Assembly: GCA_021789895.1 (NCBI GenBank)
Contig: JAJYIU010000014.1
Span: 14,550 to 78,549 of the forward strand
Source of the DNA: Acidobacteriota bacterium
Lineage (GTDB): Bacteria; Acidobacteriota; Terriglobia; Terriglobales; SCQP01
Length of the DNA: 64,000 nt
Direction: 5' to 3'
Shown: piece after piece, positions 3,999 to 36,059 of the stretch
Layout: every line of letters begins with the position of its first letter
Position numbering within the stretch: the stretch's first letter is position 1
Notes under the pieces: model-generated
The model's input: only the letters and a program-made list of their open reading frames with translations
Databases searched by the model: none
What the model was told of the DNA's origin: nothing
Made by a program: the position numbers and the translations under genes

Positions 3999-3999
3999 C

Positions 4000-5241
4000 T
4001 CAAGCCTCCGCCCGCAAGGCCACGATGGGCTCCAGTTTGGCCGCCTTGGCCGCGGGATAGATGCCGAAAAAGAGGCCGACGGCGGTGGAGATGAACAGCG
4101 CGATGATCACGGCGCTCAAGGGCAGCTTGAACGGGATCGAGCTCAGATGCCCGGCCACGGTGGTAAACAGCCAGGCCACCAGGATGCCGATCGTTCCGCC
4201 GACGGCGGAAAGCACCGCCGATTCGACCAGGAACTGCCAGAGCACGTCGCGGCGTTTCGCGCCCAGCGCCTTGCGGATGCCGACCTCGCGGGTGCGTTCG
4301 GTGACCGCGGCCAGCATGATATTCATGATCACGATGCCGCCTACCACCAGGAAGATCGCGGTGACGCCGACCGCGACGGCCGCGATGGAGCCGGTCAGCC
4401 GGTGCCAGAGATCCATGATCGCGCTGGAGCCGATGATGCCGAAATTGTCCTTATCGTAATAAGACAAATGATGGCGCGCGCGCATCAGCAGCCGCACCTC
4501 GTCAATCGCCGGGTTAATCAGGCTGGAGTTGGCCACTTTAAAGCTGATGCCGATCGAATCCTGGTTGCCATGCAGCTTGCGATAGGTGGAGATGGGAATA
4601 ATGATGAACTGATCGAGGGAATTGCCAAAGACATTGCCTTGGCGCGTGGCCACGCCGATCACGCGAAATCGGTGGCCGTCGGCGATCAGATGCCGGCCGA
4701 GCGGATTGACGTCCGGGAACAGATGGGTCACCAGGTCGGGACCGATGAAGGCGACCATGGTGCGATGCACTTCGTCGAAATGATCGAGGAAACGGCCTTG
4801 CGCCACTTCAAACGTCACCATGCTCATATCCGAGGGCGTGACGCCGCGCATGGCGACTTGATCCATGCTTTGGCCATTGGCCTTGACGGTGCCGCTCCCC
4901 CGAAAACCGCCGAAAACAAACGCCGAAACGGCAATCGGCAGCCGGGCGTGCGTCTTTAAATATTCGTAGTCGGACATGCGCAGAATGGGATTGCGCTTCA
5001 CGGCGGCCATGAAGGCCTGCCGGTCGGTGTATTCATGCAGGGAAAAACGCTGCAGGGTGAAGGTATTCAACCCCAGCCGCCCGATCTTGGTGGCGACATA
5101 AAAATTGATGCCATCCACGAACGAGACGACCGCGACCAGGGTGCAGATGGAGATGATGATGCCCAGCAGGGTCAAGAAGCTGCGCAGCTTATGCGCCCAT
5201 AGGGACTCGAACGCGATCCGTATGGCTTCGCGAATCTGCAT
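4000..5241 (-). CDS. ABC transporter permease, MacB/FtsX family (paralog of 2745-3998)
   Basis: Same architecture as the neighbouring permease. Motif VTERTREVGIRKALGAKRRDV. Lies 12 nt downstream of the ATPase gene. Confidence 0.9.
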   Translation of the reverse strand: MQIREAIRIAFESLWAHKLRSFLTLLGIIISICTLVAVVSFVDGINFYVATKIGRLGLNTFTLQRFSLHEYTDRQAFMAAVKRNPILRMSDYEYLKTHARLPIAVSAFVFGGFRGSGTVKANGQSMDQVAMRGVTPSDMSMVTFEVAQGRFLDHFDEVHRTMVAFIGPDLVTHLFPDVNPLGRHLIADGHRFRVIGVATRQGNVFGNSLDQFIIIPISTYRKLHGNQDSIGISFKVANSSLINPAIDEVRLLMRARHHLSYYDKDNFGIIGSSAIMDLWHRLTGSIAAVAVGVTAIFLVVGGIVIMNIMLAAVTERTREVGIRKALGAKRRDVLWQFLVESAVLSAVGGTIGILVAWLFTTVAGHLSSIPFKLPLSAVIIALFISTAVGLFFGIYPAAKAAKLEPIVALRAEA

Positions 5242-5993: not shown

Positions 5994-7385
5994 CTAGCTG
6001 GCGGAATTGGCTTGCGCGGCGGCGGCCGGATTCACGTTGTTGATCTTGATGCGGGCGTGATTTTTCAGCGTGCGCAGCGCGCTATACGGGCCCGTCACCA
6101 CCTGGTCGCTGGCCTGCAGCCCATGCAAGACCTGGATATGATCTTCCCCGGTGACGCCGGTTTGGACCGGCACGAACACTGCTTCCTGGCCGCGGATCAC
6201 GAAGACTCCCTGGATGGGCTTGGCATTTTTTTTCACTGCGCCGGGAGTGGCGGCTTCGGCCACTCCGCTGCCGGAGCTGCCGCCGGGTTTCAACTGGGCG
6301 GGGTCGCGCTCGACGATGGCCTGAATGGGAATGCTCAGAGCGTTATGCGCCACCGCGGTGATGATGTGGCCGGTGCAGGACAATCCGGGCCGGATGCCAT
6401 CGGGGGGCCGATTCAAGGTAATGACTACCTTGAAGTCTTTCGCTTCCTGGTTGGCCTGGCCGCCCGAAGTCGTCGCCGCCACGCCGGTCGATTGCAATAA
6501 CGCGGTGTCGCCAACTTCGGTCACCGTGCCGGGGAACTCGTCGCTGCCATAGGCGTCCACCGACACCGTCGCCGGCTGGCCCACCCTCACATGGGTGATG
6601 TCGGATTCATCCACCTGCAGATGCGCGGTCACGATCGACATATCGGCGACGCGCATCAGCAGGCTGCCGGGCGAGTTTTCGATTCCCAGTACGGCGGTAT
6701 CGCCTACGTGCACCGGTAAATACACCACCAATCCGTTTAACGGGCTGGTATAGATGGTCAAGCTGAGCTGATCTTTGGCGCTTTGCAACTGCGCGCTGGC
6801 TTGACGGATTTGCATATGCGCGCTGTGCACGGTGGCGGCAGACTGTTGGATGCGCGCTTGATCCAATTGCACTTGGGCGGCGGCGGCATCGTAGGCCTCG
6901 CGGGCGGAATCGTAATCGGAGCGCGAAATCAATTCCTGGTGATAGAGCCCCTGGGCACGGCGCCAGTTGGCCTTTTGCTGGGCGTATTGCGCCTGGCTCT
7001 GCTGCAGGCTGGCGCGCGAGGTCGCCAAGGCGGCGCTTTGCGCCTGTGCTTGCGCTTCCAGCGTATGCAGGTTGGCCGTCATCGCCTCGACGTTGGCGTG
7101 CTGTTGCACATTCCACAGCTCTGCGAGCCGCTCGCCTTTTTTCACCCGGTCGCCTTCGTGAACGTACAAATGGGTGATCTGCCCGACCGAATTGGAGCTA
7201 ATGTCGGCATAGTTTTTCGGCTTGATCTGACCCGTGGCGGTCACGATGGCGGTGACGGTGTCGCGAACCACGGGCTGGGTTTGCACCGTGACCACGCCGC
7301 GATTGCGATGCAGTATCGAAATCACGACGACCGCCGCCAGCAGCACCAATACCAGCGTCATCCAGAGCAGTTTTTTTCGCTTCAT
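5994..7385 (-). CDS. efflux transporter periplasmic adaptor subunit (HlyD/MacA family)
   Basis: N-terminal TM anchor, a long Q/A-rich coiled-coil hairpin (residues ~100-210), and barrel-sandwich and beta-barrel regions. First gene of the 4-gene efflux operon. Confidence 0.9.
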
Positions 7386-9420: not shown

Positions 9421-11205
9421 ATGCGGCAAGCGAAGCATATCCCCGGATGCGAATCGCGCCTGACCACGGCGGCCGGCCTTCGCCCGTACGGCCGCTCGCT
9501 TCATCGCCGGCTCCTCGCATCCCGCTGGCTTCCGGTTCTAGTCTGTCTCGGCCTCGCGGCCGGCTGGAGCGCGGCGCCAGCCGGTGCGCAGTCACGGCTC
9601 TCGGTGCAGAAGCTGCCGGCCAGCCTGATCGGCGTCGTGACCGGCCTCAATGGCAAGCCTGAATCCGGCGCCCTGGTGCTGCTCCGTCCGCTGCTGCGGA
9701 ATGAGAGCGTCTGGCGGCGCACGACCGGCCCGGGCGGCACCTTCCTGATTCCCACTCTGCCCCCCGGGCTGTATTGGCTGCAGGCGGGCAAGGGCAAGCG
9801 GCTATCCGCGCCGCGGCGGCTGGAGCTTCGCCAGGGCGAGACCGTGCTGCTGACGCTGCACCTGGCCGCAGCCGCGCACCGCGATTTGATCAGCGATATG
9901 CAGGCCTATCGCTGGGTGTTGCGCGCCGATGCCGGCCATCGTCCGTTGCTGCGCTATCGCCAAACCGGCAAGCGGCGCGCGGGCGATTCGCCGGCGCTGT
10001 TGAACGGCTCGGTGGCGATGCTGGCCGGCAGCGGCAGCACCGCTTTTACCATGCCTTCGGCGCTGAATACCAATATCAGCATGCATACCCTGGCCGACGA
10101 TATGCTGTTCGGTTTCAGCGGCAGCATCGGAACCTCCGGCTGGAATTCCAGTTCCTCCTTCGCCGCCAGCATGACGCCGGAATTGCACGATTGGTGGCGC
10201 GGCTCCTGGCGCGTCGAGGTGCAGCATATTCCTACTCCGGTGCTCGGCCATTTGCCGGTGCTGAATTTATTTACCCTGAATTACGCCAACCAGGCCAGCC
10301 TCGGCCGCGCAGTGCAGCTCCAATACGGAATCCTGGCCAACGATTTATACGGCGCCAATTCGTTGTATCAATTTTCGCCCTACGCCCGGCTCAACCTGCA
10401 ACTGGCTTCCGGACGGCATCTGGAATATCGCTATGCCGCCGCCCCGCCGCCGCTCGATTTTCTCCAGAACCGGCTGTGGGCCCCCAATCCCGCGCCGCGC
10501 GTCAGCTTGAACGGCGGCCGCCCGGTGATGGAGCGCGGCCTGCATCAGGAAGTAGCCTTCTTTTCCAGCCTGGGCCCGGCGAATGAAATTGAGCTGGCCT
10601 GGTTTTACGACAGCTTCCATCACGCCATCATCAACGGTTCCTGGCGTGGCGAGCTGCCTTCCGAACTGCTCAATTCCGGCTATCTCCTGCCGGACAGCTA
10701 TTCCAACCTGTTCAGCGCCGACGGCGGCAGCTACGCCGGCAGCGGCATGGTCGCCCTCCTGCAACACCAGTTAAGCCAGGGATTGAGCCTCAGCCTGGGC
10801 GCGGAAGAAGGCCCGGTGCTCGTCGCCGTCGGCGACCACATGCGCCCGACCGGCCCGGCCGGCCTGTTGAGCGAGACCCGCGCCCTTGCCTTTTCCGCGC
10901 GCCTGGCGGGTGAGATGGGGCCGGTGCACACGCGCATCATTTGCAGCTATCGCACTGCCGGCCGCCGCCAACTCACTACCCCCGATCCCTATGAAACCGA
11001 CGATTCCGGCCAGCCTTTTGCCAACGTGCAAATTCGCCAGCCGCTGCCGAGCATGCCCTTCACCGACGGACGCATCATCGCCCTGATGGAAGTGCAGAAT
11101 GTTTTAGCTCAGGGCTATGTGCCGGTGTACAGCGCCGACGGGCATCTGCTTTACCTGATTCAGGCGGCGCGAGCGCTCCGCGGCGGGTTGAGCTTTAATT
11201 TTTAA
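9421..11205 (+). CDS. carboxypeptidase-regulatory-like domain protein, probable outer-membrane beta-barrel
   Basis: Signal-like N-terminus. CarboxypepD_reg-like block GVVTGLNGKPESGALVLLRP...GGTFLIPTLPPGLYWLQA. C-terminus GLSFNF ends in Phe, as an OMP beta-signal does. Confidence 0.7.
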   Translation: MRQAKHIPGCESRLTTAAGLRPYGRSLHRRLLASRWLPVLVCLGLAAGWSAAPAGAQSRLSVQKLPASLIGVVTGLNGKPESGALVLLRPLLRNESVWRRTTGPGGTFLIPTLPPGLYWLQAGKGKRLSAPRRLELRQGETVLLTLHLAAAAHRDLISDMQAYRWVLRADAGHRPLLRYRQTGKRRAGDSPALLNGSVAMLAGSGSTAFTMPSALNTNISMHTLADDMLFGFSGSIGTSGWNSSSSFAASMTPELHDWWRGSWRVEVQHIPTPVLGHLPVLNLFTLNYANQASLGRAVQLQYGILANDLYGANSLYQFSPYARLNLQLASGRHLEYRYAAAPPPLDFLQNRLWAPNPAPRVSLNGGRPVMERGLHQEVAFFSSLGPANEIELAWFYDSFHHAIINGSWRGELPSELLNSGYLLPDSYSNLFSADGGSYAGSGMVALLQHQLSQGLSLSLGAEEGPVLVAVGDHMRPTGPAGLLSETRALAFSARLAGEMGPVHTRIICSYRTAGRRQLTTPDPYETDDSGQPFANVQIRQPLPSMPFTDGRIIALMEVQNVLAQGYVPVYSADGHLLYLIQAARALRGGLSFNF

Positions 11206-11229
11206 GCAGATAAAGGGCAGATTCGTTAC

Positions 11230-11260
11230 TATGGAATTTAATAAGCCGAATTATGGAATT
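11230..11260. repeat. two exact TATGGAATT direct repeats 22 nt apart (candidate enhancer/UAS sites)
   Basis: TATGGAATT at 11230-11238 and 11252-11260. Related TTGGAATTT at 11303-11311. CCTAAAT at 11286 and 11316. All lie in an AT-rich gap upstream of the sigma-54-type promoter. Confidence 0.45.
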
Positions 11261-11345
11261 CAGTATAATTTTTGGCTTTCACCTTCCTAAATCTGTAAAC
11301 CGTTGGAATTTCATCCCTAAATATTATTCTTGCCGCTGGATGTGC

Positions 11346-11361
11346 TGGCATCATAAATGCA
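11346..11361 (+). promoter_or_regulatory. sigma-54 (-24/-12) promoter candidate
   Basis: TGGCATCATAAATGCA versus consensus TGGCAC-N5-TTGCW. GG at 11347-11348 and GC at 11359-11360 have canonical spacing. Lies 23 nt upstream of the kinase ATG. Confidence 0.5.
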
Positions 11362-11383
11362 CAGTGTTCCTATACTCTAAAGC

Positions 11384-14260
11384 ATGAGGTGGCAGCCGGA
11401 CGCAGGCGTGAAAACAAGCAGTCCAATCCGGTTTTCGATCGCCAGCGCGCTGGTAGCTTCTGCCATTGTCCTGGCAATCGTCATCCTCGGCGCCCGGCAG
11501 CTATGGAACTGGCATGCGCCCAGTGACGGAGTCGAGTGGCAGGTGACCGCGCATGGGTTGCGCGCCGGCCGCGTCCTGGCTCTATCTCCGGCCTGGAAGG
11601 CGGGCGTGCGCGGCGGCGACTGGTTGATTGCCGTCAATGGTGCGCCGCTGCTAGACCGCCGCCAGGTGCAGCAGGCCTTATTTGCCGCGGGAGCGGGCGG
11701 GACGCTGAACTATATCGTGCTCGCGGGCGAGCGCCTGATGCGCGTGCAATTGCATTTAAGCGCCGCGCCCCGACATCTGCTGCGCTACGGCTATGAAGAC
11801 CTGATCGCACTCTGTTTCCTCGCCATCGGGCTGTATGTCTTGCTGCGCCGCTCGTCCACCGCCCAGGCGCAGCACTTTTTCTGGTATTGCCTGGCCTCCA
11901 GCCTGTTATTCGGCTTCCATTTTAGCGGCCGGCTGGACTGGCTCGATTGGGTGTTGTTCTGGGGCAATGTCGCCGGCACGCTGCTGGCGCCGGCCATGCT
12001 GCTGGATTTCGCCTGCAACTTTCCTGCGCCGCTCGAACGCCTGCGCCGGATGCCGGGTTGGCGCGTGGGCATCTATATTCCCGCCGCCTTGCTGGCGCTA
12101 TTCCAGATCGCGGTGTCGCGCGGGGCGCTGAGCACTGGCGTGGATGCGCAGTACCTTGCCGACCGGCTGGCATACGCCTATTTGGGGATCTGCCTGGGGC
12201 TGGCCGCGGGCTTGTTCTGGCGCAGTTACCGCCGCGCCGCCGCGCCCCTGCTCCGCCAGCAGTTGAAGTGGCTGACGCGCGGCATGCTGCTGGCCGCGAT
12301 CCCATTCCTGGGCCTTTACGTGATTCCCTATGTCGCCGGCTGGCCGTTGCCGCCGGGCGCGGAATGGTCGCTGGCCGGCCTGCTGCTCATTCCCTTTGCC
12401 TTCGCCAACGCCATTATCCGCTACCGGCTGATGGATACCGATATCCTGTTCCGGCGCGGCTTAGCCTTTACCATCGCCGCCCTGCTGGTCATCGCCGCCG
12501 ATTTCGCCGCGATCGGTCTGGTCGCCGCCCTGATCCGCACCAAGTTGCCGAATAGCGGCACGCTCGGCCTGGTGTTCGCCGTGGTGCTGGCGGCGCTGCT
12601 GTTCGAACCGGTGAAAAATCAGGTACAGGCGCGGCTGGAGCAATGGCTCGATCCCCACCGCGGTTCCGATCGCCAGGCGCTGACGGAAATGGCGCGCCAG
12701 CTCAGCGCCGAGCATTCGCTCGACCGGCTGACCGCGGGCGTGCTGGAGCAGTTGCAGCGGCGGCTGCGGCTCGACCGCGTGGCCCTGTTCCTGGCAGATC
12801 AGGGGACGCTGCGCCTGGCCGGCAGCCGCGGCCTGACGGCGCCGGCGCCGGAGCTCAACCTCGATTTCCTCTCCGCCGAGCTCGAAAGCCGCCGCTATCT
12901 GTTTATCGAAAACCCGCAACAGCAGTCCGGACGCCCGGAGCCGGAGCGCCGCGCTCTGGCCGGCCTCGATCTACATTTCTACCTGCCTTGCCGCACCCGG
13001 CAGCGGCTGCTGGCGGTGCTAGGGCTGGGCCGCACCCGCAGCGGCGATTATCTTACCAGCGAGGAGACGGCCCTGCTCGAAATTCTGGCCGGTCATCTGG
13101 CCATCGCCCTGGAAAATGCGCGCCTGCACGGCCAATTGCACAATCAGGTGCGGCAGTTTGAGCGTTTGAAGGAATTCAACGAAAATATCGTGGAAAGCGT
13201 GGGAGTGGGAATCGTGGCGCTCAGCCCGGACGACCGGGTGGAGAGCTGGAATACCCAGATGGAAGTGCTGACCGCGCGGCCGCGCGCCGGCGTACTCGGC
13301 CTGCGTTTGGAAGAGGCGCTGGGGGCGGAGTTCGCCGCCGCCTATTACCAGGCGCGCCCTGAAGGCGGCTTGCGCCAGTTGGAGAAGTTCCACCTGCGGC
13401 TCGATCCCGGTTCCGAAACGGGCATTTCCGCGCCGCGGGTGGTGAATGTGGCGATTGCGCCGCTGGTGACGCCGCAATTGGAAAGGATTGGACGAATTTT
13501 GCTGTTTGACGACATCAGCGCCCGGGTCGAGCTGGAATCACAATTGGCCCAGGCCGAGCGCCTGCGCTCGTTGGGCCTGCTGGCGGCCGGAGTGGCGCAC
13601 GAGGTCAACACGCCTCTGGCGGTGATTTCCAATTACACCCAACTGCTGGCCAAGCAGATGGCCGCAGGCGACCCGCGCGCCCCGGTGCTGGACGTCATCA
13701 CCCGGCAGACTTTCCGCGCCTCGGAAATCGTCAGCAACCTGCTGCATTTCGCCCGCGCCCAGGGCGGTGAAAAAGTGCCGGTGGACCTGCATCTCGTGCT
13801 GCAAGACACGCTGGCGCTCGTGGAACATCCCCTCCGCAGCGCCCGCATCCAGGTGGATTTGGCATTGGAACCCGCGCTGCCGGAGATCATCGGCCATGCC
13901 GGCCAATTGCAGCAGGTGCTGCTCAACCTGTTGCTCAACGCCCGCGACGCCATGCCCGGCGGCGGCCGCCTGCACCTCTGCACCCGCAGCCTGGAAAACG
14001 GCGTGGAGATCGCCATCAGCGATACCGGCACGGGCATGCCGGCGGAAGTTCGCGAACGCATTTTCGATCCTTTCTTCACCACCAAAAAGCCGGCGCGCAA
14101 CGGCAACGGCGGGCTGGCCTCCGGCACCGGCCTCGGACTGTCGGTCAGCTACGGCATCATCCAAGACCACCAGGGCAGCATCAGCGTGGAAAGCACGCCC
14201 GGGCGGGGAAGCTGCTTCCGCATCCATTTGCCGGCCGCGGAAAGGACGCTGCATGCCTGA
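11384..14260 (+). CDS. sensor histidine kinase with N-terminal PDZ-like domain, polytopic membrane region, GAF and PAS modules
   Basis: TM helix (residues ~17-37). PDZ-like block LRAGRVLALSPAWKAGVRGGDWLIAVNG. About 8 hydrophobic helices (residues ~130-400). GAF- and PAS-like regions. H-box HEVNTPLAVI. ATPase boxes LLNLLLNARDAM, DTGTGM and GTGLGLS. Confidence 0.9.
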   Translation: MRWQPDAGVKTSSPIRFSIASALVASAIVLAIVILGARQLWNWHAPSDGVEWQVTAHGLRAGRVLALSPAWKAGVRGGDWLIAVNGAPLLDRRQVQQALFAAGAGGTLNYIVLAGERLMRVQLHLSAAPRHLLRYGYEDLIALCFLAIGLYVLLRRSSTAQAQHFFWYCLASSLLFGFHFSGRLDWLDWVLFWGNVAGTLLAPAMLLDFACNFPAPLERLRRMPGWRVGIYIPAALLALFQIAVSRGALSTGVDAQYLADRLAYAYLGICLGLAAGLFWRSYRRAAAPLLRQQLKWLTRGMLLAAIPFLGLYVIPYVAGWPLPPGAEWSLAGLLLIPFAFANAIIRYRLMDTDILFRRGLAFTIAALLVIAADFAAIGLVAALIRTKLPNSGTLGLVFAVVLAALLFEPVKNQVQARLEQWLDPHRGSDRQALTEMARQLSAEHSLDRLTAGVLEQLQRRLRLDRVALFLADQGTLRLAGSRGLTAPAPELNLDFLSAELESRRYLFIENPQQQSGRPEPERRALAGLDLHFYLPCRTRQRLLAVLGLGRTRSGDYLTSEETALLEILAGHLAIALENARLHGQLHNQVRQFERLKEFNENIVESVGVGIVALSPDDRVESWNTQMEVLTARPRAGVLGLRLEEALGAEFAAAYYQARPEGGLRQLEKFHLRLDPGSETGISAPRVVNVAIAPLVTPQLERIGRILLFDDISARVELESQLAQAERLRSLGLLAAGVAHEVNTPLAVISNYTQLLAKQMAAGDPRAPVLDVITRQTFRASEIVSNLLHFARAQGGEKVPVDLHLVLQDTLALVEHPLRSARIQVDLALEPALPEIIGHAGQLQQVLLNLLLNARDAMPGGGRLHLCTRSLENGVEIAISDTGTGMPAEVRERIFDPFFTTKKPARNGNGGLASGTGLGLSVSYGIIQDHQGSISVESTPGRGSCFRIHLPAAERTLHA

Positions 14261-27653: not shown

Positions 27654-27745
27654 GCAGGTTTTATTTTCGCACCCGGCTCCAGGATGCGTCTATGTCGGCC
27701 GGGCTAAATTTCTGCGATCTGCCGCCGCCCGGCGTGCGTATATAT

Positions 27746-30175
27746 ATGATTATGGGCGCTGAACTTCGCCAGGCGTTGCGCCAACTGATTCGCGAGCCCG
27801 GCTTTGCCGCCGCCGCCATTCTGGCGCTGGGGCTGGGGCTGGCGGCCAACACCGCCATTTTCTCCCTCGTCCACGGCATACTGCTCAGCCCGCTGCCGTT
27901 TCGCCAGCCCGGGCGCCTGGTGGCCATACAGGAACGCATTCCCAAGTTGGCGGCGCGCTATCCCATGATTCCCGTCAACGCGCGCGCCTGGCAGACATGG
28001 CAGCGGGACGCGCATACGCTGGATGGGATTGCGCTGATCGGCTTCAACAGCAGCTACAATCTCACCGGGGCCGGCGAGCCGGTGGCGCTGCAGACCGATG
28101 CGGTTTCCGCCAACCTGTTTCAAGTGCTCGGCGTACATCCTTTGCTGGGCAGCGATTTTTCAGCGAATGCCGACCGGCCCGGCAGCCGCCACGAAGCCAT
28201 ACTGACTTACGCTCTCTGGCGGCAGCGCTTTCACGCCGACCCGTCGCTGATCGGCCGCGGCATCACCCTCAACGGCAGCCTGTACATCGTGCGCGGGGTG
28301 CTGTCCCCCGATTTTCACTTTTTTAAAGGCACCGAGCTGAGCCCGATTATCTCGCTCGGCGCGTCGTCCAGCCTGTTCGTAGTCCATATCTTCCATAAAG
28401 ACGATCTCCAGGAAAGCGGCAATTTCAACTACGCCGCGATTGCGCGGCTGCGCCCGGGCGCGACCGCCGCGTCCGCCAATGCCGAACTGAACCGGCTGTG
28501 TCCCAGCCTGACCTCATCCGAAATACCTGAATTACAGGCGGTGGTGTTGCCCTTGCGGGCGATGGCGACCGCCGGCGCGCGACGCGGCTTGTGGCTGATG
28601 CAGGCGGCGGTGCTGGCCGTTTTGCTGATCATCTGCGTCAATCTGGCCAACCTGCTGCTGGCCCGCGCCGCCGCGCGCGAGCAGGAAGCCTCCTTGCGCG
28701 CCGCCCTTGGCGCCAGCCGCGGACGCCTGCTGCGCCTGGTGTTGATGGAATCGCTGCTGCTGGCCCTGGCCGGCGGCCTGCTCGGGCTGGCCCTGGCGGG
28801 ATTGGGCATGCACGCCCTGCTGGCCGCCGCGCCCGCCAGCCTGCCGCGCCGTTCCGCCGCCGGGCTCGACCTGCCGGTGCTGGCGTTTACTTTCCTGATC
28901 GCGCTGCTTTCCGGCTTGCTGGCCGGCGCCGCGCCCGCCTGGCGCCTGGCCCAAAGCCCGCCACGCAATGCGCTTTACGGCTCCGGTCCGCGCGCCGGCG
29001 CCAGCCGCCGCCGGGTGCGGGCGCATGCTTTTCTGCTCGGGGCCGAGGCCGCGCTCTGTGTCGCTCTGCTGCTGGTGGCCGGGCTGCTGCTGGCCGGCTT
29101 TGCCCGCCTGACGGCCCAGCCCACCGGGTTTGCCATCCGGAGCGTGCGCGAGGTGCGCATCAATCTGACCTCCGCCGCCTATAAAAAACCGGATCCCCGC
29201 CGCCAGTTCTGGCTGCAATTGCTGGCTTCCGTGCAGCGGCTGCCGGGAGTCACCTCCGCCGCCCTGATCAACACCCCGCCGCTGGGCGGCAACAACGAAG
29301 TCAACCCGATCATGGTTCCGGGCGATACCCGCCCGCTGATCGAGCAGCCGATTGCGAATTACCGTTGGGCCACCCCCGGGGCTTTTCGGCTGCTGCACAT
29401 TCCGCTGCTTTCCGGCCGCCGGTTCACCGCCGCCGACCGCGGCCAGCCGGTCGCGCTGGTTTCCGCCGCCGCCGCACGCGCCGCCTGGCCGGGGCGCAAT
29501 CCCATCGGCCAGCTCTTCCGCCGCGATCCGGATTCCAAGCAAGCGTTTCGCGTAGTGGGCGTGGTTGCCGATATGCGCGGCATCGGGTTGTTCGATTCGC
29601 CGGGGTTGATGGTTTATCGGCCTTTCGACGCCCGCTACGGCGCGACCCTGCTGCTGCGCAGCCGCCTGCCCGCCGCTTCGCTCGCGCCCGAGCTGCGCCG
29701 CGCCGTCTGGAGCCTCGATCCGGAGCTGCCGGTGGGCCGGGTGCGCTCCATGCGCCAGGTGATGGATCGGGCGCTGGCCCCGAACCGCTTCCAGCTTCTG
29801 CTGGTTTCCGTTTTTGCCCTGGCCGCGCTGCTGCTGGTCGCCTTCGGCATTTATGCGGTCGTGGCCTACGCCACCCAGCGCCGCACGCGCGAAATCGGCA
29901 TCCGCGTGGCGCTCGGCGCCGGCCCTGCGGCTATCTATCGCCTGCTGGTGCTGCAGGCGCTGCGCCCGGTTGCCGCCGGCGCGCTGATCGGCCTGGCCGC
30001 CGCCATCGTGGCCGGGCGCTGGCTCTCCAGCCTGCTGTTCAACGTTCCGGCTTACGATCCAACAGTGCTTGCGGCAGTGATCGCGGTGCTGCTCGCCGCC
30101 GCCCTGCTGGCCAGTTCGTTGCCCGCCCGCGGATCGCTGCGCCTCGATCCGGTCGCCGCTCTGCGGCAGGAATAG
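27746..30175 (+). CDS. ADOP-type duplicated ABC permease (two MacB_PCD + FtsX modules)
   Basis: N-terminus LRQALRQLIREPGFAAAAILALGLGLAANTAIFSLV. Two FtsX modules, the second with QRRTREIGIRVALGAGP. No adjacent ATPase. ATGs at 27746 and 27752. Confidence 0.9.
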   Translation: MIMGAELRQALRQLIREPGFAAAAILALGLGLAANTAIFSLVHGILLSPLPFRQPGRLVAIQERIPKLAARYPMIPVNARAWQTWQRDAHTLDGIALIGFNSSYNLTGAGEPVALQTDAVSANLFQVLGVHPLLGSDFSANADRPGSRHEAILTYALWRQRFHADPSLIGRGITLNGSLYIVRGVLSPDFHFFKGTELSPIISLGASSSLFVVHIFHKDDLQESGNFNYAAIARLRPGATAASANAELNRLCPSLTSSEIPELQAVVLPLRAMATAGARRGLWLMQAAVLAVLLIICVNLANLLLARAAAREQEASLRAALGASRGRLLRLVLMESLLLALAGGLLGLALAGLGMHALLAAAPASLPRRSAAGLDLPVLAFTFLIALLSGLLAGAAPAWRLAQSPPRNALYGSGPRAGASRRRVRAHAFLLGAEAALCVALLLVAGLLLAGFARLTAQPTGFAIRSVREVRINLTSAAYKKPDPRRQFWLQLLASVQRLPGVTSAALINTPPLGGNNEVNPIMVPGDTRPLIEQPIANYRWATPGAFRLLHIPLLSGRRFTAADRGQPVALVSAAAARAAWPGRNPIGQLFRRDPDSKQAFRVVGVVADMRGIGLFDSPGLMVYRPFDARYGATLLLRSRLPAASLAPELRRAVWSLDPELPVGRVRSMRQVMDRALAPNRFQLLLVSVFALAALLLVAFGIYAVVAYATQRRTREIGIRVALGAGPAAIYRLLVLQALRPVAAGALIGLAAAIVAGRWLSSLLFNVPAYDPTVLAAVIAVLLAAALLASSLPARGSLRLDPVAALRQE

Positions 30176-30288
30176 AAGCAGCCGGGGCAGAGAAAATGCC
30201 GCGCCATGCGGCTGGTTTCGATGAGGGTGCTGCGCTACGAGTGAAAAATTAACGATTAAAATGCCAATTTAAAAATTTCATGCAAATT

Positions 30289-30432
30289 TACTGTCAGTAC
30301 TGTCAGTGAATGTTTAAGCTTTTTAGAATCAACAAATTGTACTGACAGCAAGTCAAAAACTGCTGTCGGTGAAAAATGTGAAATTTCTGGCCTAACTCCC
30401 GTCGCAACTATAATTTAGTAGCACTGACAGTA
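30289..30432. repeat. array of the palindromic 9-mer ACTGNCAGT (5 copies) forming nested inverted repeats
   Basis: ACTGTCAGT at 30290-30298 and 30299-30307 (tandem). ACTGACAGc at 30341-30349. gCTGTCgGT at 30362-30370. ACTGACAGT at 30423-30431. The 11-bp TACTGTCAGTG (30298-30308) is the exact reverse complement of 30422-30432. Confidence 0.7.
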
Positions 30433-30681
30433 ACTTTTCGAGATTGCCGGCGAACCCCGTCGGTAGTGCTTGTGAAGCCACGGCCGTCTCAGGCTGTGCC
30501 CTCGCCCTCATATCCGCCGGACAGATGAAAAAATGAGACATGCGGCTGCGCCGAATATATCCGAATTCTGAGGATAAGCCTTTATGAACAAGGTAGATAC
30601 GGCGCCGGGGGCCGTTAAAAAGAGACATTTGGCATTTTATATCGCTGCCGTGAAGCACCAGACAGTACAGCCCGGAGGCGA

Positions 30682-31308
30682 TCAGGAATGGGCCATCGGC
30701 TCTGTTTCGCGCGCGCGCCGTGCCCAGGCCAGCAGCGCGCGCGCCGCCTGGCCACGGTGGCTGTAGCCGGCTTTTTCCGCCGCCGTCAGCTCGGCAAAGC
30801 CCCGCCCGGCCGCGGGGGAAAAAAACAGCGGATCGTAGCCGAAGCCGTGCTGGCCGCGCGGGGAATCCAGGATGAAGCCTTCCGCCTTGCCCTCGAAGCT
30901 GGCCAGCACCTGGCCGGCGCGGGCCACCGCCAGCACACAGACGAAGCGCGCGCTGCGCCGCTCCGGCTCGATGCCGCGCAAGCGCTCGAGCAGCAGGCGG
31001 TTGTTGGTCTCGTCGTCGCCGTGGCGTCCGGCGTAGCGGGCCGAGCGGACGCCGGGCTCGCCGCCGAGCGCATCCACCACCAGCCCGGAATCGTCGGCCA
31101 TCACCAGCGGCGCTTCCGGCATGCGTTCCGCCGCCCAGGCGCTGGCGGCGGCGGCCTTCAGGCCGGCGTTGGCGAGAAACGTCTCGCCGGTTTCCTCGAT
31201 CTCCGGCATGGCCTCGATTCCCGGCAGCAGTTCCACCACGAGCGCGGGCGCCATGCCGTCGAAATCGCGCAGCTTGCCGCGATTGCGGCTGGCTAAATAA
31301 ATCTTCAT
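30682..31308 (-). CDS. rdgB: non-canonical purine NTP pyrophosphatase RdgB/HAM1
   Basis: MKIYLASRNRGKLRDF, FGYDPLF and SHRGQA motifs. 208 aa. The track ORF (to 31833) is a 5' over-extension. Confidence 0.9.
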   Translation of the reverse strand: MKIYLASRNRGKLRDFDGMAPALVVELLPGIEAMPEIEETGETFLANAGLKAAAASAWAAERMPEAPLVMADDSGLVVDALGGEPGVRSARYAGRHGDDETNNRLLLERLRGIEPERRSARFVCVLAVARAGQVLASFEGKAEGFILDSPRGQHGFGYDPLFFSPAAGRGFAELTAAEKAGYSHRGQAARALLAWARRARETEPMAHS

Positions 31309-31366
31309 CCCGCCGCGCCGGCGGGGCGACAGGAAGCGCGAGGCCGCGAATCCGGCCTTCGAATCC

Positions 31367-32359
31367 TCAAGCATTGACATCGAGAACGATCCGACCCTGA
31401 ATCTTGCCTTCCAGGATGGCTTGCGACAGCGCGACGACGCGCGAGAGCGGTTCGACCCGGCTGATGGCGTCCAGCGTTGCGGCCGGCAGCTCGCGTTCGA
31501 GCCGTTCCCAGACCCGTTTTCGCCTTTCCGGGCGGCAGCCGCTGGAGCTGATGCCCTGCAGCCGCACCCCGCGCAAGAGCAGCGGATAAACCGTGCCGGC
31601 CAGTTCGGCGCCGCCGGCCAGCCCGCAGGCGGCGATGGCGCCGTCGGCCGCGGTGGCGGCCAGCAGGTTGGCGAGCATTTTACCGCCGGCATTGTCCACT
31701 GCCCCCGCCCAGCGCTCGCTGTCCAGCCCCGGCGGCGTTCCCTCCAGCTCGGCCCGCGGCACGATGCGCCGCGCTCCCAGCCGGCGTAAATAAGGCTCCA
31801 GTTGCGGACGTCCCGTGATCGCCGCGACGGCATAGCCGCGCGCGGCCAGCAGCGCGACCGCTACCGAGCCCACGCCGCCGGCTGCGCCGGTGACGGCGAT
31901 TTCCCGCTCCCCCGGCCGCACGCCCGCATCTTCCAGCGCCATCAAGGCCAGCATGGCGGTCAAGCCGGCGGTGCCAATCGCCATTGCCTGACGGGTGGAA
32001 AAGCCCGCCGGCAGCGGCGTCAGCAGCTCCGGCCGCAGGCGCTGGCGACGGCTGTAGCCGCCCCAATCGGTTTCGCTCAGCCCCTGGCCGGTGACCACTA
32101 CCGCGTCGCCGGGCTGGAAGCGCGGATCGGAGGAGGATTCGACCCGGCCGGCCAAGTCAATGCCCAGCACCATCGGCGAGCGGCGGATGATTTTGCCGCG
32201 TCCGGTCACCGCCAGCCCGTCTTTGTAATTCAGCGAGGAGTATTCGATCTGGACCAGCACGGGGAAGGGCGGCAAGTCCAGGTCGCGCAGTTGGCGGAAG
32301 CCGGCGCGGTAGCCGGCGGGGGTATTTTCCGCAACCAGTGCAGGGAAGGCGGCGCTCAT
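31367..32359 (-). CDS. NADPH:quinone oxidoreductase, YhdH/YhfP (MDR) family
   Basis: SSLNYKDGLAVTG, VTGAAGGVGSVAV and C-terminus GRIVLDV. ATG at 32359 overlaps the rph stop by 4 nt (ATGA). Confidence 0.9.
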   Translation of the reverse strand: MSAAFPALVAENTPAGYRAGFRQLRDLDLPPFPVLVQIEYSSLNYKDGLAVTGRGKIIRRSPMVLGIDLAGRVESSSDPRFQPGDAVVVTGQGLSETDWGGYSRRQRLRPELLTPLPAGFSTRQAMAIGTAGLTAMLALMALEDAGVRPGEREIAVTGAAGGVGSVAVALLAARGYAVAAITGRPQLEPYLRRLGARRIVPRAELEGTPPGLDSERWAGAVDNAGGKMLANLLAATAADGAIAACGLAGGAELAGTVYPLLLRGVRLQGISSSGCRPERRKRVWERLERELPAATLDAISRVEPLSRVVALSQAILEGKIQGRIVLDVNA

Positions 32360-33787: not shown

Positions 33788-33979
33788 ATGGGTGAGAACG
33801 AAAAACGAGCGTTTCAGCTTAGTTTCAACCCTTCAATCCGGGTCGCTTTCCAGGGCTCGCGGGTCACATCCGATGGCGGCTTGCTACTGTTGCGTGAACT
33901 GGATGAGCGGCTCGGCTTGGGAGAGTTTGCTGCTGAATGTCTGACCGATGCGCGAGCGAAGAATGCGCAACTGCCGTTG
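33788..33979 (+). pseudogene. N-terminal fragment (~64 codons) of an IS1380-family-like transposase
   Basis: FQGSRVTSDGGLLLLRELDERLGLGEFAAECLTD resembles the conserved N-terminus of IS1380-family transposases. Similarity stops at ~33979, where the sequence becomes AT-rich filler. No DDE domain follows. Confidence 0.6.
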
Positions 33980-34220
33980 AGAATTATGCTAATAAATGAA
34001 ATTAAAAAAATAAAACGGGATCCAAATAAATATTTTCACTTAGATTTCTATAGCTTAGGAAGGAAACGCGAACAGGGTAAATTCGACGTAGTAACCGAGC
34101 AGTAAACTTCGCGGCCGGAGGCAAAGCCGGAGCGGAGTAATTTTCAGTTTACGTTCACATTGCAAGGAGAACGATAAAGACGAAGGATTCAAGTACCGGA
34201 CGCCGTAGCGGAGGCAGTCC

Positions 34221-36059
34221 ATGGCCGCGAACGTTGCATTATGCCGATGGTTCTTTTCGCGCCGGGCGGGGCATGCATACCGGAGGATAGCGAGTGTGGG
34301 AGCGGCCGGGCTGGCGTGGACGGCGCTAGCGCTGCCGGCGAAGGCGCAAACGCAGGCCCGGGCGGCGGGGAGGCCGGCGCAGGCGCGTCCGGCGGGGGCG
34401 CAGTCGAGGGTACCCAGGTTTCATGTCACCATCCGTCTGGTGCAAGTGCCGGTGACGGTCGAGGACGGCAAGGGACATTTCATCGCGGGCCTGAAGCAGA
34501 GCGATTTTGGGCTGTGGGTGGACGGGAAGCCAACCCCGATCGCGGCGATGGACGTGCCGCGAGACTTGCCAACCGCGATCAGGGTGCCGCGCGCGCCCGC
34601 CGGCGCATTTAGCAACCAAACCGAGATCGGCGCGCGCAACCACGTCATCTTTCTTTTCGGCGGCACACCCTGGTCAGGCATGCCGTATTTGCGGAAGGAA
34701 CTCCTAAAAATGCTCGCCCGCCAGCCGCTGCCGGCAGGCATCGATATAGCCATCTTCAACCTGGACTGGACTGGATTGCAATTAATGCTGCCATTTACGC
34801 GCGAACGCACGCAACTGGCCGCGACCATCAACAGCATTTTTGGCTTTACCCGCCATCATGGCTACCGGCCGCAACTCGTGCACCGATATGCCGACTCCGC
34901 GCGGTGGTATTCGAACGAAGATCCAGCGGAGACGATGTCGAGGATGATGGCATTCGATCATCTACACCTCATTGGACCAGCCGAGGAAGCATTGGAGCAA
35001 CCATATAACGATCAAATTAGCGCACTCTCGTTATTGGCCCGACTAATAAAAGGCGTCTCCGGACACAAGGAAATCATCTGGTTCACCACTAATATTGGCG
35101 GCAGCGTTTTCCGCTTGCCCGGCGGGCTTTACATATCCGCCGCCTCATCCAGCAATCAGGCCATAGAAAAATTAAATAAGATGCTGCAACTCATGAATAG
35201 CGCCAATGCGTCAATAATTTCAATCGATCCAAGCGGGCCGGCATTCAGCCTGGGGGCGATGCTGACTTTATCCAACGCCGACCACTATGCGCGCCAGACC
35301 GGCGGCCTGGCGCTGGGCGGCAACAACGATATTGCGAAGCTGGTGCGGGAAGCGCTGCAGTATCCACAAGACCAATACGTGCTTTATTTCAAGGCGAGAT
35401 CCAACTGGCGGCCGCCACGACGAACCCAACTGCAGCGTTTCGTCAATCTTTTCGATTACAGCACGCCCGCCAGCCGGAGGCGACAGCGATGGTATCGCAA
35501 AATCAAAGTCCGGGTATGGCGGCGCGGAGCGCATATCCTCTATCGCCGCGAATTCAAGCAGACGCACTATCAGCGCGGCGACGCAGCCAAACTACCGCTG
35601 GCGAATATCGCCTTCAACCCGATGGACTGGAGCGGACTGCCGATGCTGCTCCGGCCGGGGCCGGTGAGCGCGCCGATGCCGCCGTACTGGTCCGGGGCGC
35701 CGGCGGGCGAACGTATCCGGGAGATGCCGTTCCGGCTCGATCTGGCCGCGCGGCGGCTGCTGCACCGGCTTGACGACGGGCGTTACATTTACGATTTCAG
35801 CGTGGTGACGATCATGTTTTCCCCCGCCGACAAGGAGGTGACCCGGTTGCCGAATACCGACCATTATCAACGAACGTTAAGCGCGAGCCAGGCCGCCGCG
35901 CTGGCGAACGGCAGCATTCATTATGAAGGCCGCTTTGTCGAGCGCGCCGGGGCGGCGACGTTTGGCCGCGCCGTGGTGCTGGACAACATCAATGGCGCAG
36001 TTGGCACCATCACCATCCGGATCGGTTCGAGGCCGCCGGGGCCGCGAACAGGTGGTTGA
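34221..36059 (+). CDS. VWFA-related Acidobacterial-type domain protein (secreted)
   Basis: GGAGG Shine-Dalgarno 6 nt upstream. Signal peptide ending ALPAKA-QTQ. N-terminal block RFHVTIRLVQVPVTVEDGKGHFIAGLKQSDFGLWVDGKP is typical of this family. The central part has markedly lower GC. Confidence 0.8.
   Translation: MAANVALCRWFFSRRAGHAYRRIASVGAAGLAWTALALPAKAQTQARAAGRPAQARPAGAQSRVPRFHVTIRLVQVPVTVEDGKGHFIAGLKQSDFGLWVDGKPTPIAAMDVPRDLPTAIRVPRAPAGAFSNQTEIGARNHVIFLFGGTPWSGMPYLRKELLKMLARQPLPAGIDIAIFNLDWTGLQLMLPFTRERTQLAATINSIFGFTRHHGYRPQLVHRYADSARWYSNEDPAETMSRMMAFDHLHLIGPAEEALEQPYNDQISALSLLARLIKGVSGHKEIIWFTTNIGGSVFRLPGGLYISAASSSNQAIEKLNKMLQLMNSANASIISIDPSGPAFSLGAMLTLSNADHYARQTGGLALGGNNDIAKLVREALQYPQDQYVLYFKARSNWRPPRRTQLQRFVNLFDYSTPASRRRQRWYRKIKVRVWRRGAHILYRREFKQTHYQRGDAAKLPLANIAFNPMDWSGLPMLLRPGPVSAPMPPYWSGAPAGERIREMPFRLDLAARRLLHRLDDGRYIYDFSVVTIMFSPADKEVTRLPNTDHYQRTLSASQAAALANGSIHYEGRFVERAGAATFGRAVVLDNINGAVGTITIRIGSRPPGPRTGG

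Follow-up and report, generated by a model that had tools for sequence, protein, structure and literature searches.

The DNA that was analyzed, a stretch of 64 kb referred to here as the window, carries between two convergent housekeeping genes a gap without a recognizable gene that probably represents, with a rough probability of 55%, an orphan iteron origin fragment derived from a mobile element, itself probably truncated and inert. According to this reading, 506 bp of foreign DNA would have been inserted between these genes in a Terriglobales lineage, and its AT-rich core, about 30241-30440, would be an orphan iteron array that includes a tandem pair of the site CTGWCAGTA, two further good sites and a degenerate one. 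The array would be of the type located directly 3' of the genes encoding VapE/D5-like primase-helicases of phages and integrative islands, where the initiator-helicase is expected to bind the iterons, as occurs in the SaPIs through a C-terminal winged helix, and to melt the central AT-rich tract so that replication can start. The inserted DNA could be the remnant of an integrated element that was deleted, or a fragment captured during the repair of a break, and it would remain inert unless the cell acquires a phage or an island of the same iteron specificity. The term orphan fragment is preferred to origin because the 64-kb window holds no initiator gene.

The gap is delimited by the following features, whose position, convergent orientation, coordinates and sequences agree with those reported in the initial annotation of this DNA.

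30173-30175, plus strand: stop codon TAG of the ADOP permease gene (TIGR03434, E 5.5e-235).
30176-30681, no strand: lineage-specific insertion of 506 bp between the stop codons of the ADOP permease gene (plus strand) and rdgB (minus strand).
30682-31380, minus strand: rdgB, called as 232 aa, with its 3' end at 30682 (TIGR00042).

In the two closest relatives, whose RdgB proteins are 74-82% identical and whose gene order is the same as in the window, rdgB and the ADOP permease gene are placed tail to tail, with stop codons that are 0 bp (L002) and 4 bp (L003/L004) apart, and the C-terminus of the ADOP permease is conserved up to the last residue. Since the closest relatives have only 0-4 bp at this position, the gap is a 506-bp insertion in this lineage, a possibility that the initial annotation had raised. 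The GC content of the whole gap is 0.47, and it falls to 0.29-0.41 across 30200-30450, as compared with 0.66 for the window; this low GC shows that the composition of the gap is foreign. The count of 58 G+C in 180 nt for 30241-30420, originally obtained by hand, was exact. The left end of the contig carries housekeeping genes, and a truncated DDE transposase fragment is present 3 kb from the gap (33788-34105).

The repeated site and the AT-rich segments that accompany it are distributed in the gap as follows.

30241-30289, no strand: AT-rich tract that flanks the tandem pair, 10 G+C in 49 nt (20% GC).
30290-30307, no strand: tandem pair ACTGTCAGT-ACTGTCAGT (30290-30298 and 30299-30307), an exact 18-mer.
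30308-30340, no strand: AT-rich spacer, 8 G+C in 33 nt (24% GC).
30341-30349, no strand: site 3, ACTGACAGC, an 8/9 match, with the extended form gTACTGACAGCa.
30353-30371, minus strand: degenerate site (GCTGTCGGT at 30362-30370, a 7/9 match) plus flank, which reads CACCGACAGCAGTTTTTGA on the minus strand.
30422-30434, no strand: cACTGACAGTAAc, which contains site 4 (core ACTGACAGT at 30423-30431) and fits the extended phage consensus CTGACAGTAA.
30659-30670, no strand: CAGACAGTACAG, which contains the half-site ACAGTA at 30662-30667.

All the copies and the half-site listed in the initial annotation were recovered with the same match scores. Within 142 bp there are three exact copies of ACTGNCAGT, one with one mismatch and one with two mismatches, and three of the four sites of the window read CTGACAGTA. 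The three exact copies are the only ones in the window, where 0.31 would be expected. In dinucleotide-preserving shuffles of the gap sequence itself, the mean number of sites was 0.004 for exact copies and 0.12 for copies with up to one mismatch, versus 3 and 4 observed, and none of 20,000 shuffles attained the observed counts. A short site repeated several times within a few hundred base pairs is characteristic of iteron origins, and here the copy number is at the low end, given the 6-12 iterons of the SaPIs, with four good sites versus the 7-12 found in the phage arrays described below. AT-rich tracts on both sides of the tandem pair are likewise a characteristic of such origins, and the tract at 30241-30289 resembles an unwinding element. 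A repeat search also found the reverse-complement relations that had been noticed between 30291-30300 and 30339-30348 (10 nt) and between 30298-30308 and 30422-30432 (11 nt), as well as the direct repeat GTGAAAAAT at 30241 and 30369. The inverted repeats described as nested are therefore real, but they are not independent features, because they follow from the recurrence of a near-palindromic site.

The evidence that relates this site to replication comes from arrays of CTGACAGTA that are located directly 3' of genes encoding primase-helicases (VapE/D5-like) in six independent phage or island contigs. The helicase that accompanies each array is indicated below.

L006/L030: VapE; GC 0.37.
L007: VapE; GC 0.39.
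L032: PrimPol+VapE, 824 aa; GC 0.60.
L138: PriCT_2+VapE, 814 aa; GC 0.60.
L053: VapE; Cyclobacteriaceae MAG.
L295: RepB_primase+D5_N+DUF5906, 809 aa.

The window sites have the same sequence as the sites of these initiator-linked arrays. The exact 18-mer ACTGTCAGTACTGTCAGT is present in four of the six: it is the AT-flanked centre of the array in L006/L030, L007 and L032, and it opens the array of L053; in L138 the centre is the one-mismatch version GCTGACAGTACTGACAGT. In the 49 phage sites compared, the base after CTGACAG is T in 42 and the next one is A in 30. Some likeness extends past the core site. In the window, as in L032 and L053, an iteron is followed by GGTTTTTSA, and the tandem pair is followed by AATnTTTAAGnTTT, as it is in L138. 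The first 15 nt of the window spacer, GAATGTTTAAGCTTT, resemble AATTTTTAAGATTT, located 3' of the L138 pair, with 84% identity over 32 nt when the pair is included, which is only suggestive of homology. The minus-strand sequence CACCGACAGCAGTTTTTGA is comparable to CACTGACAGTGGTTTTTGA of L053 and GCTGACAGTGGTTTTTCA of L032; its 84% identity over 19 nt to L053 is suggestive of homology beyond the core site. The sequence CAGACAGTACAG coincides with 12 nt of a variant iteron pair of L317, CAGACAGTACAGACAGTA, with an E value of about 0.1, and this match is probably due to chance.

Elements that carry related helicases indirectly support the idea that these arrays are recognized by the initiator. 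Helicases that are 72% and 66% identical to that of L006 are accompanied by the repeats GGTGACAC and GGTGACAGGT in a layout that is kept, a helicase 76% identical to that of L138 is accompanied by CAGACAGTA throughout its array, and an island helicase with 50% identity is accompanied by ACCCCG repeats. A concerted change of the iterons with a constant layout is the behaviour of initiator-specific iterons. In L316 the island layout int-alpA-orf-VapE-array is observed. The CTGACAGTA iteron is present in only 3 of 80 VapE loci, and the array does not occur throughout this family of primase-helicases, given that a cultured phage relative, Burkholderia phage Mica, has no intergenic gap 3' of its primase-helicase gene. 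A C-terminal tail is common to the helicases of L006, L007 and, weakly, L053, as well as L138, and it is not seen in those of L032 and L295; because the six helicases share no obviously common tail of this kind, binding of the iteron by the helicase is proposed here as a putative function. From these observations we infer that the helicase-linked arrays are origins and that the helicase is their binder, although the arrays could instead be operators for another phage protein.

The position of the window array differs from that of these arrays, since its neighbours are the ADOP permease gene and rdgB and not an initiator gene. No homologue of VapE, D5, RepB-primase or VRR-NUC was detected by tblastn within the 64-kb window, and no pseudogene remnant was detected when VapE, VRR-NUC and all the stop-to-stop segments around the six phage arrays were compared with the gap by tblastn; coding remnants were not detected either in the remaining 240 bp of the gap. 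Since there is no helicase within 64 kb, the sites are fewer and one flanking cluster of iterons seems to be missing, the window copy is most likely a truncated relic. Comparison of the gap by blastn with plasmids, phages and the fetched loci yielded the motif plus two short flank likenesses, and no donor was identified. The named-organism relatives of the L138 helicase are proteobacterial and none is acidobacterial, so that no donor is known in the phylum of the host. Metagenome contigs with matches (at least 120 loci) were mostly coding or satellite repeats and uninformative as to the donor, and a literature search with the motif string retrieved primer sequences only.

Arrays of this site are rare. 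When 185,579 representative genomes (596 Gb), a collection that does not include the source MAG, were scanned for the tandem pair, 43 matches were obtained, with about 35 expected by chance as a rough estimate. Most of these matches are isolated, and many are 18-bp perfect palindromes that act as terminator hairpins; only one non-coding match sits in an array, that of L053, beside the VapE gene. Near-identical palindromes also serve as ordinary operators, e.g. upstream of a TetR-like gene in L177.

Other features of the gap bear on the remaining explanations.

30198-30212, minus strand: GC-rich hairpin GCCGCATGGCGCGGC followed by ATTTTCTCTG, terminator-like, outside the AT-rich core.
30257-30267 and 30629-30639, no strand: perfect 11-nt inverted repeat, left arm TAAAATGCCAA and right arm TTGGCATTTTA.
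30409-30414, plus strand: weak promoter candidate with a perfect TATAAT and a poor -35 region, CTGGCC; transcription is predicted to start at about 30421, immediately next to site 4.
30584-30766, plus strand: 60-aa ORF with a GAGGA Shine-Dalgarno sequence, called as a gene in the source annotation, which overlaps rdgB in antisense by 85 nt.

A stricter promoter scan retained only CTGTCA-18-TAGAAT at 30300-30329 (one found versus 0.3 expected), and the hairpin at 30198-30212 is the sole terminator-like site in the gap, a count that is not above the shuffle expectation. A coding explanation of the gap was rejected because its ORFs have no homologue in NCBIfam or PHROG, nor, for the 60-aa ORF, by HMMER; this ORF is probably spurious, given that it matched only itself among 1.84 billion representative proteins.

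The initial annotation had proposed a binding-site array for a dimeric protein, and this idea is supported in kind, since the same extended site is arrayed in six mobile-element contigs. It is unlikely, however, that the gap is an operator array where a TetR- or Xre-like dimer of the host controls a small gene or an sRNA transcribed from the AT-rich core. The sites are near-palindromic, the TATAAT at 30409-30414 would place a transcription start at site 4, and the -35 element of the CTGTCA-18-TAGAAT candidate lies within the tandem pair; in addition, the 18-bp palindrome ACTGTCAGTACTGACAGT occupies the divergent promoter upstream of the TetR-like gene of L177, and the 60-aa ORF with its good Shine-Dalgarno sequence is placed downstream. 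Nevertheless, the promoter matches are of the weak kind that AT-rich DNA is expected to yield, the ORF lacks homologues and overlaps rdgB in antisense, and the gap adjoins no regulator gene and offers no gene for regulation. The relatives lack the whole region, so no conserved regulatory need is apparent, and a direct tandem pair in a 9-bp register accompanied by dispersed single sites is typical of iterons, whereas L177 shows a single perfect palindrome. The likely binder would be the replication initiator of a mobile element rather than a dimeric regulator of the host. It is extremely improbable that the gap encodes a structured RNA, as had also been suggested, whether in the 3' UTR of the rph-acuI-rdgB operon or as an sRNA in its own right. 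The predicted folding is modest, somewhat more stable than that of shuffled sequences, and near-equal on both strands (z of -2.8 for the plus strand, -2.3 for the minus strand and -2.0 for the whole gap), a symmetry that palindromes in the DNA would be expected to produce. The minus-strand hairpin at 30212-30198 would terminate a read-through transcript of rdgB; yet the window gave no match to Rfam 15 at the gathering thresholds, and at E values up to 10 only noise was obtained (13-15 bits versus thresholds of 49-195). No tRNA or tmRNA was found by search, and because the relatives lack any 3' UTR at this position neither conservation nor covariation supports a structure.

A decayed MITE, which had been proposed as a 135-bp unit (30298-30432) with 11-bp terminal inverted repeats, or alternatively a 383-bp unit bounded by the 11-nt inverted repeat TAAAATGCCAA (30257-30267/30629-30639), is a highly improbable origin for the gap. 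It would agree with the status of the gap as an insertion relative to other genomes, with the two perfect pairs of 11-nt inverted repeats and with the DDE transposase fragment 3 kb away. However, the presumed terminal repeats at 30298 and 30432 consist of the repeated site itself in two copies, neither 30298/30432 nor 30257/30639 is flanked by a direct duplication, neither unit covers the whole 506 bp, and the internal architecture fits origin arrays and not known MITE families. The search for further units, by blastn, revealed no second copy in the 64-kb window and no extended match in the plasmid, phage, genome and metagenome collections searched. It is very unlikely that a chromosomal phage origin has been kept as a working cis element, decoy or hitchhiker. 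Upon infection by a phage or an island with CTGACAGTA specificity, such an array would titrate the initiator, bringing about a resistance like that of PER, or would fire local replication and amplify the neighbouring genes. In favour of this idea, phage origins provided in trans give phage-encoded resistance in Lactococcus, according to work cited in PMC8965321, three perfect sites and their AT-rich flanks are kept within a genome of 66% GC, and the site is common to elements of very different GC content. Against it, the occurrence is single, with no other orphan array among the 43 tandem-pair matches in the 185,579 representative genomes; the array is present in one copy, whereas PER works via copy number; one flanking iteron cluster is apparently missing; and no phage is known for this host. 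We infer that the window copy is a relic.

With an orphan origin fragment as its explanation, an odd AT-rich and gene-free gap becomes mobile-element debris and leaves the list of candidate sRNAs, regulators and transposons. For phage biology, a recognizable origin signature would follow the genes of VapE/D5-type primase-helicases in six or more lineages of uncultured phages or islands; in this signature, CTGACAGTA iterons surround an AT-rich centre that has a tandem pair, and sister elements show concerted iteron changes. This signature would offer a concrete initiator-iteron pair for a very common and poorly studied class of phage replication proteins. In a broader reading of low probability, the fact that CTGACAGTA is common to primase-helicase modules of phages of 37% to 60% GC, with differing primase domains, hints at an undescribed portable origin-recognition module. 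If the orphan copy were active, it would show that origin decoys occur naturally on chromosomes.

Several known systems share some of these characteristics. The window sites resemble the operators of dimeric repressors, such as the TetR-type operator of L177 and the E. coli LexA box (CTGT-N8-ACAG), in their near-palindromic CTGNCAG core and their TACTGT/ACAGTA half-sites; in contrast, the half-site spacing differs from that of the LexA box, and instead of one operator in a promoter the window shows two sites in direct tandem, with others scattered singly, in a gap free of genes. As in MITEs, a short, AT-rich and non-coding insertion with terminal-looking inverted repeats is observed, but no target-site duplication and no other copies of the gap were found, its repeats are sites iterated in the interior, and it corresponds to no known transposase end. 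The PER system of Lactococcus, as far as the work cited in PMC8965321 describes it, is similar in that a phage origin resident in the host, apart from its phage, engages the replication factors that an infecting phage brings in; PER was demonstrated with origins cloned in multicopy, whereas the window has one chromosomal copy, and the likeness is an analogy only.

In the SaPIs, the origin has iterons directly downstream of rep, 6-12 in number, and an AT-rich centre, and it is bound by the C-terminal winged helix of Rep (PMC9371898); in pRN1 the origin is also located 3' of the primase-helicase gene (PMC4234260). As in the origins of SaPIs and PICIs, short sites in several copies accompany a central AT-rich tract, the six arrays bearing the motif of the window adjoin the 3' end of a primase/helicase gene, and the iteron sequence varies between related initiators. 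The differences are that the site is the 9-mer (A/G)CTGACAGTA instead of a penta- or hexamer and that VapE/D5-like helicases take the place of SaPI Rep in the phage arrays; moreover, the window copy has no initiator gene, has fewer sites and is outside any island. In the satellite phage P4, the alpha primase-helicase recognizes repeated octamers in ori and in a second cis site, crr, that is away from the gene. Both cis sites of P4 belong to the same 11.6-kb replicon as alpha, whereas the window has no initiator within 64 kb and a different iteron sequence; still, ori and crr are a precedent for sets of iterons detached from the initiator gene.

The intergenic region between the convergent genes for the ADOP permease (TIGR03434, E 5.5e-235), whose stop codon lies at 30175, and RdgB (called at 30682-31380, 232 aa, and ending at 30682) is 506 bp long. 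When the sequence was read, the features listed for this gap in the initial annotation were all present at their coordinates, and the hand-counted GC of 30241-30420 (58 of 180) was confirmed; in 100-nt windows over 30200-30450 the GC content is 0.29-0.41, as against 0.66 for the whole window. The motif ACTGNCAGT has three exact sites in 64 kb, all inside the gap, and four sites occur in the gap at one mismatch or less; the means in dinucleotide-preserving shuffles of the gap itself were 0.004 and 0.12, and none of the 20,000 shuffles equalled the observed counts. The motif cluster is real and non-random. The nested inverted repeats also described for this region exist, but only as the automatic result of a near-palindromic site that occurs several times. 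The array is ordered as follows.

Parts of the window array, in order
AT-rich tract, 49 nt, 20% GC, before the tandem pair
Tandem pair, two 9-mer sites end to end, 30290-30298 and 30299-30307
AT-rich tract, 33 nt, 24% GC, after the tandem pair
One good site
Degenerate site
AT-rich stretch, 52 nt
Last good site

The 8-mer AAAATGCC is also found three times in the gap (30194-30201, 30258-30265 and 30631-30638; two copies on the plus strand and one on the minus strand), and two of these copies make up the 11-nt perfect inverted repeat I7; the triple occurrence may be due to chance in AT-rich DNA.

The window comes from a metagenomic contig of 89.7 kb (ENA ERZ27233565, k141_601821); the 14.5 kb to its left carry housekeeping genes, and the RdgB homologues bear the name Terriglobales. 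In the two nearest genomes, L002 and L003/L004 (GCA_021818955.1), RdgB identity is 74-82% over the alignment and the gene order is the same as in the window: serS, hypothetical, ahpC, rph, acuI-like, rdgB, convergent ADOP permease, chlorite-dismutase-like, HhH-GPD and 6PGD. The stop codons of rdgB and the ADOP gene are 0 and 4 bp apart in these relatives, as compared with 506 bp in the window, which agrees with the earlier suggestion that the block is an insertion. Conservation of ADOP extends to its last residue, and the RdgB tail varies among relatives, yet ends at a similar position; in a more distant relative the neighbouring gene is another one and lies 72 bp away. The simplest reading is that the lineage of the window gained 506 bp. 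Two other AT-rich intergenic pockets of the window (11201-11400 and 34001-34200) both precede genes, while the gap separates two gene ends.

Another lineage-specific insertion, at 33788-36059, was observed 3 kb away; flanked by ahpC and the conserved hypothetical gene of 322 aa, it is absent in L002, L003 and L004 and includes the following features.

33788-34105, truncated DDE_Tnp_1_4 transposase fragment, which runs into an AT-rich stretch at about 33980-34200
34221-36059, ORF of 612 aa, with zero matches in Pfam, PHROG and PADLOC

The called N-termini of both genes flanking the gap exceed those of their orthologues, by 20 residues in ADOP (27692-27751) and by about 28 in RdgB (31288-31380); the real starts are probably internal Met residues, M21 in ADOP and the Met preceding KIYLASRN in RdgB.

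The viral contigs were scanned for the tandem pair, and the matches were mainly chance or coding, the latter including collagen-like Thr-Gly-Ser repeats when N = G or C; three phage groups (L006/L030, L007 and L032) were outstanding, with 8-11 sites within ±200 nt. In these groups the exact 18-mer ACTGTCAGTACTGTCAGT is placed at the AT-rich centre with CTGACAG(T) clusters on both sides, the array starts directly where the gene for a helicase with a VapE domain, or for a PrimPol-VapE primase-helicase, reaches its stop codon, and a VRR-NUC gene comes next. Representative bacterial and archaeal genomes (596 Gb) gave 43 tandem-pair matches for a rough chance expectation of about 35, and the only non-coding array among them is that of L053. 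Two further elements were obtained from a protein-guided scan of VapE relatives (L138) and from a scan for spaced CTGACAGTA pairs (L295), so that six independent elements have a CTGACAGTA array at the 3' end of a replication helicase gene.

Phage and island elements with helicase-linked arrays
L006/L030: GC 0.37; array at L006 1337-1601
L007: GC 0.39; array at 9700-9945
L032: GC 0.60, array in an AT-rich pocket; 4205-4420
L053: Cyclobacteriaceae contig; array at 1847-2005, directly after a VapE gene
L138: GC 0.60; 814-aa PriCT_2+VapE protein; array at 3765-4060
L295: 809-aa RepB_primase+D5_N+DUF5906 primase-helicase, then the array at 6190-6400

Since the next gene past the array differs among the six (VRR-NUC, small ORFs, or none for 1 kb), the helicase is the conserved partner of the arrays. 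The word CTGWCAG occurs in 3 of 80 VapE loci, and over all 80 it is found 0.69 times per kb within 650 nt past the gene, versus 0.14 per kb elsewhere. A literature search limited to the motif string and some keywords found no published account of the CTGACAGTA iteron. A by-product of this work is an iteron word common to several uncultured phage lineages and previously uncharacterised.

Two helicases that share 72% and 66% identity with the L006 protein retain the three-part layout, with the repeats changed to GGTGACAC/GTGACAG and GGTGACAGGT. The helicase of locus L317 is 76% identical to that of L138 and the regions downstream (3520-3900 vs 3765-4060) are superimposable, with the terminator hairpin, the AT-rich centre and the site positions alike; every L317 iteron is CAGACAGTA in place of the CTGACAGTA of L138, with one position changed. 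As read from the sequences, this pair is a clean natural case of concerted iteron change. ACCCCG repeats were seen with a further helicase, of 50% identity, which belongs to an int-alpA-orf-VapE island. L006 and L007 have a common iteron and a common C-terminal stretch, AIRNGKxGERMR, which is absent from the two relatives of L006 with changed iterons; the association is only suggestive, because L032 and L295 have C-termini unlike the others. The arrays behave like initiator-specific iterons, and from their position, layout and concerted variation we infer that they are replication origins.

In 49 phage sites oriented on CTGACAG, the next base is T in 42 and the following one A in 30; the four good sites of the window are CTGACAGTA (three) and CTGACAGCA (one). 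Past the core site there are two short resemblances: the degenerate window site with its flank, CACCGACAGCAGTTTTTGA on the minus strand, resembles CACTGACAGTGGTTTTTGA of L053 and GCTGACAGTGGTTTTTCA of L032, and GAATGTTTAAGCTTT, after the tandem pair, resembles AATTTTTAAGATTT in L138. On the minus strand, the parts of the window array follow the same order as one half of the array in L032 (GGTTTTT-flanked iteron, AT-rich tract, tandem pair, AT-rich tract). The second iteron cluster seen in L032 is missing, and the window copy therefore resembles a reduced and probably truncated version of the helicase-linked arrays. No VapE, D5, RepB-primase or VRR-NUC homologue was found in the 64 kb; the relatives of the L138 helicase that bear organism names are proteobacterial, so no Acidobacteriota donor is known.

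Similar words were observed in other settings. In L177, a metagenome contig of 70% GC, a divergent intergenic region (3360-3440) contains the perfect 18-bp palindrome ACTGTCAGTACTGACAGT and another CTGACAG site, upstream of an ORF whose N-terminus is TetR-like, as assigned by eye; this looks like an ordinary operator with a nearly identical word. The near-identical metagenome contigs L170 (6060-6700) and L241 (5990-6620), of GC 0.60, carry in succession a long run of C, 80 nt of almost pure A+T, the tandem 18-mer and a repeat of about 30 bp that contains TTGTGTGGATCCAAA and is present about ten times; the arrangement looks like the origin of another replicon. At several loci of Lactococcus sp. 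dk101 and L. fujiensis (L035, L052, L066, L074), ACTGTCAGTACTGACAGT is flanked by an A-run and a T-run and looks like a bidirectional terminator hairpin with no relation to the arrays.

Other readings of the gap were considered. The array could be an operator for a host factor with an unannotated transcript, which is unlikely given that promoter-like matches in the gap are weak; one terminator-like hairpin is present (30198-30212), a number not above expectation. A 60-aa ORF, a gene in the source annotation, was rejected as coding, as its sole match in a set of 1.84 billion representative proteins was to itself, and profile scans of the gap ORFs gave zero family matches. A transposon-like element, akin to the 135-bp MITE-like insert proposed initially, is very unlikely: no second copy of the gap occurs within the 64-kb window, plasmids and phages contain nothing similar except a 48-nt AT-rich stretch, and no extended similarity was found among about 300 fetched loci (for metagenomes, among the matches listed), so that there is no sign of membership in a repeat family. 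The proposal of a structured small RNA or 3' UTR element did not hold up and is highly improbable. Predicted folding is slightly more stable than in shuffles, with z-scores of -2.8 and -2.3 that are nearly equal by strand, as DNA palindromes would give, and a convincing structured RNA was rejected on this symmetry; Rfam gave no family at gathering scores and just noise when E values up to 10 were allowed, and neither tRNA nor tmRNA genes were detected. The remaining probability belongs to explanations outside those considered.

We favour, with a probability of about 0.55, the reading that the gap is an orphan fragment from the replication origin of a phage or an island. The fragment would have been left between two convergent genes, where insertions are harmless, either as the piece remaining after deletion of a larger integrated element or as DNA captured in break repair; the L053 array lies at the edge of its element, beside host-type genes. 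An array devoid of its initiator would be expected to be silent. The cognate initiator of an infecting element would bind it, and the array might titrate the initiator or fire; in Lactococcus, phage origins in trans are known to confer resistance (PMC8965321). A functional array of this kind is very unlikely here. The array is small and present in one copy, and it has no counterpart in the searched genomes.

In staphylococcal pathogenicity islands (SaPI), the region directly after rep holds 6-12 iterons grouped about an AT-rich centre, and the C-terminal domain of Rep binds them through its winged helix (PMC9371898); the helicase-linked CTGACAGTA arrays have a matching layout, with iterons after the helicase gene and an AT-rich centre. 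In the archaeal plasmid pRN1 the origin directly follows the 3' end of the primase-helicase gene (PMC4234260), a position shared by the CTGACAGTA arrays. The gap is not a new kind of system and is, on the favoured reading, an orphan case of the known iteron origins of primase-helicase mobile elements.
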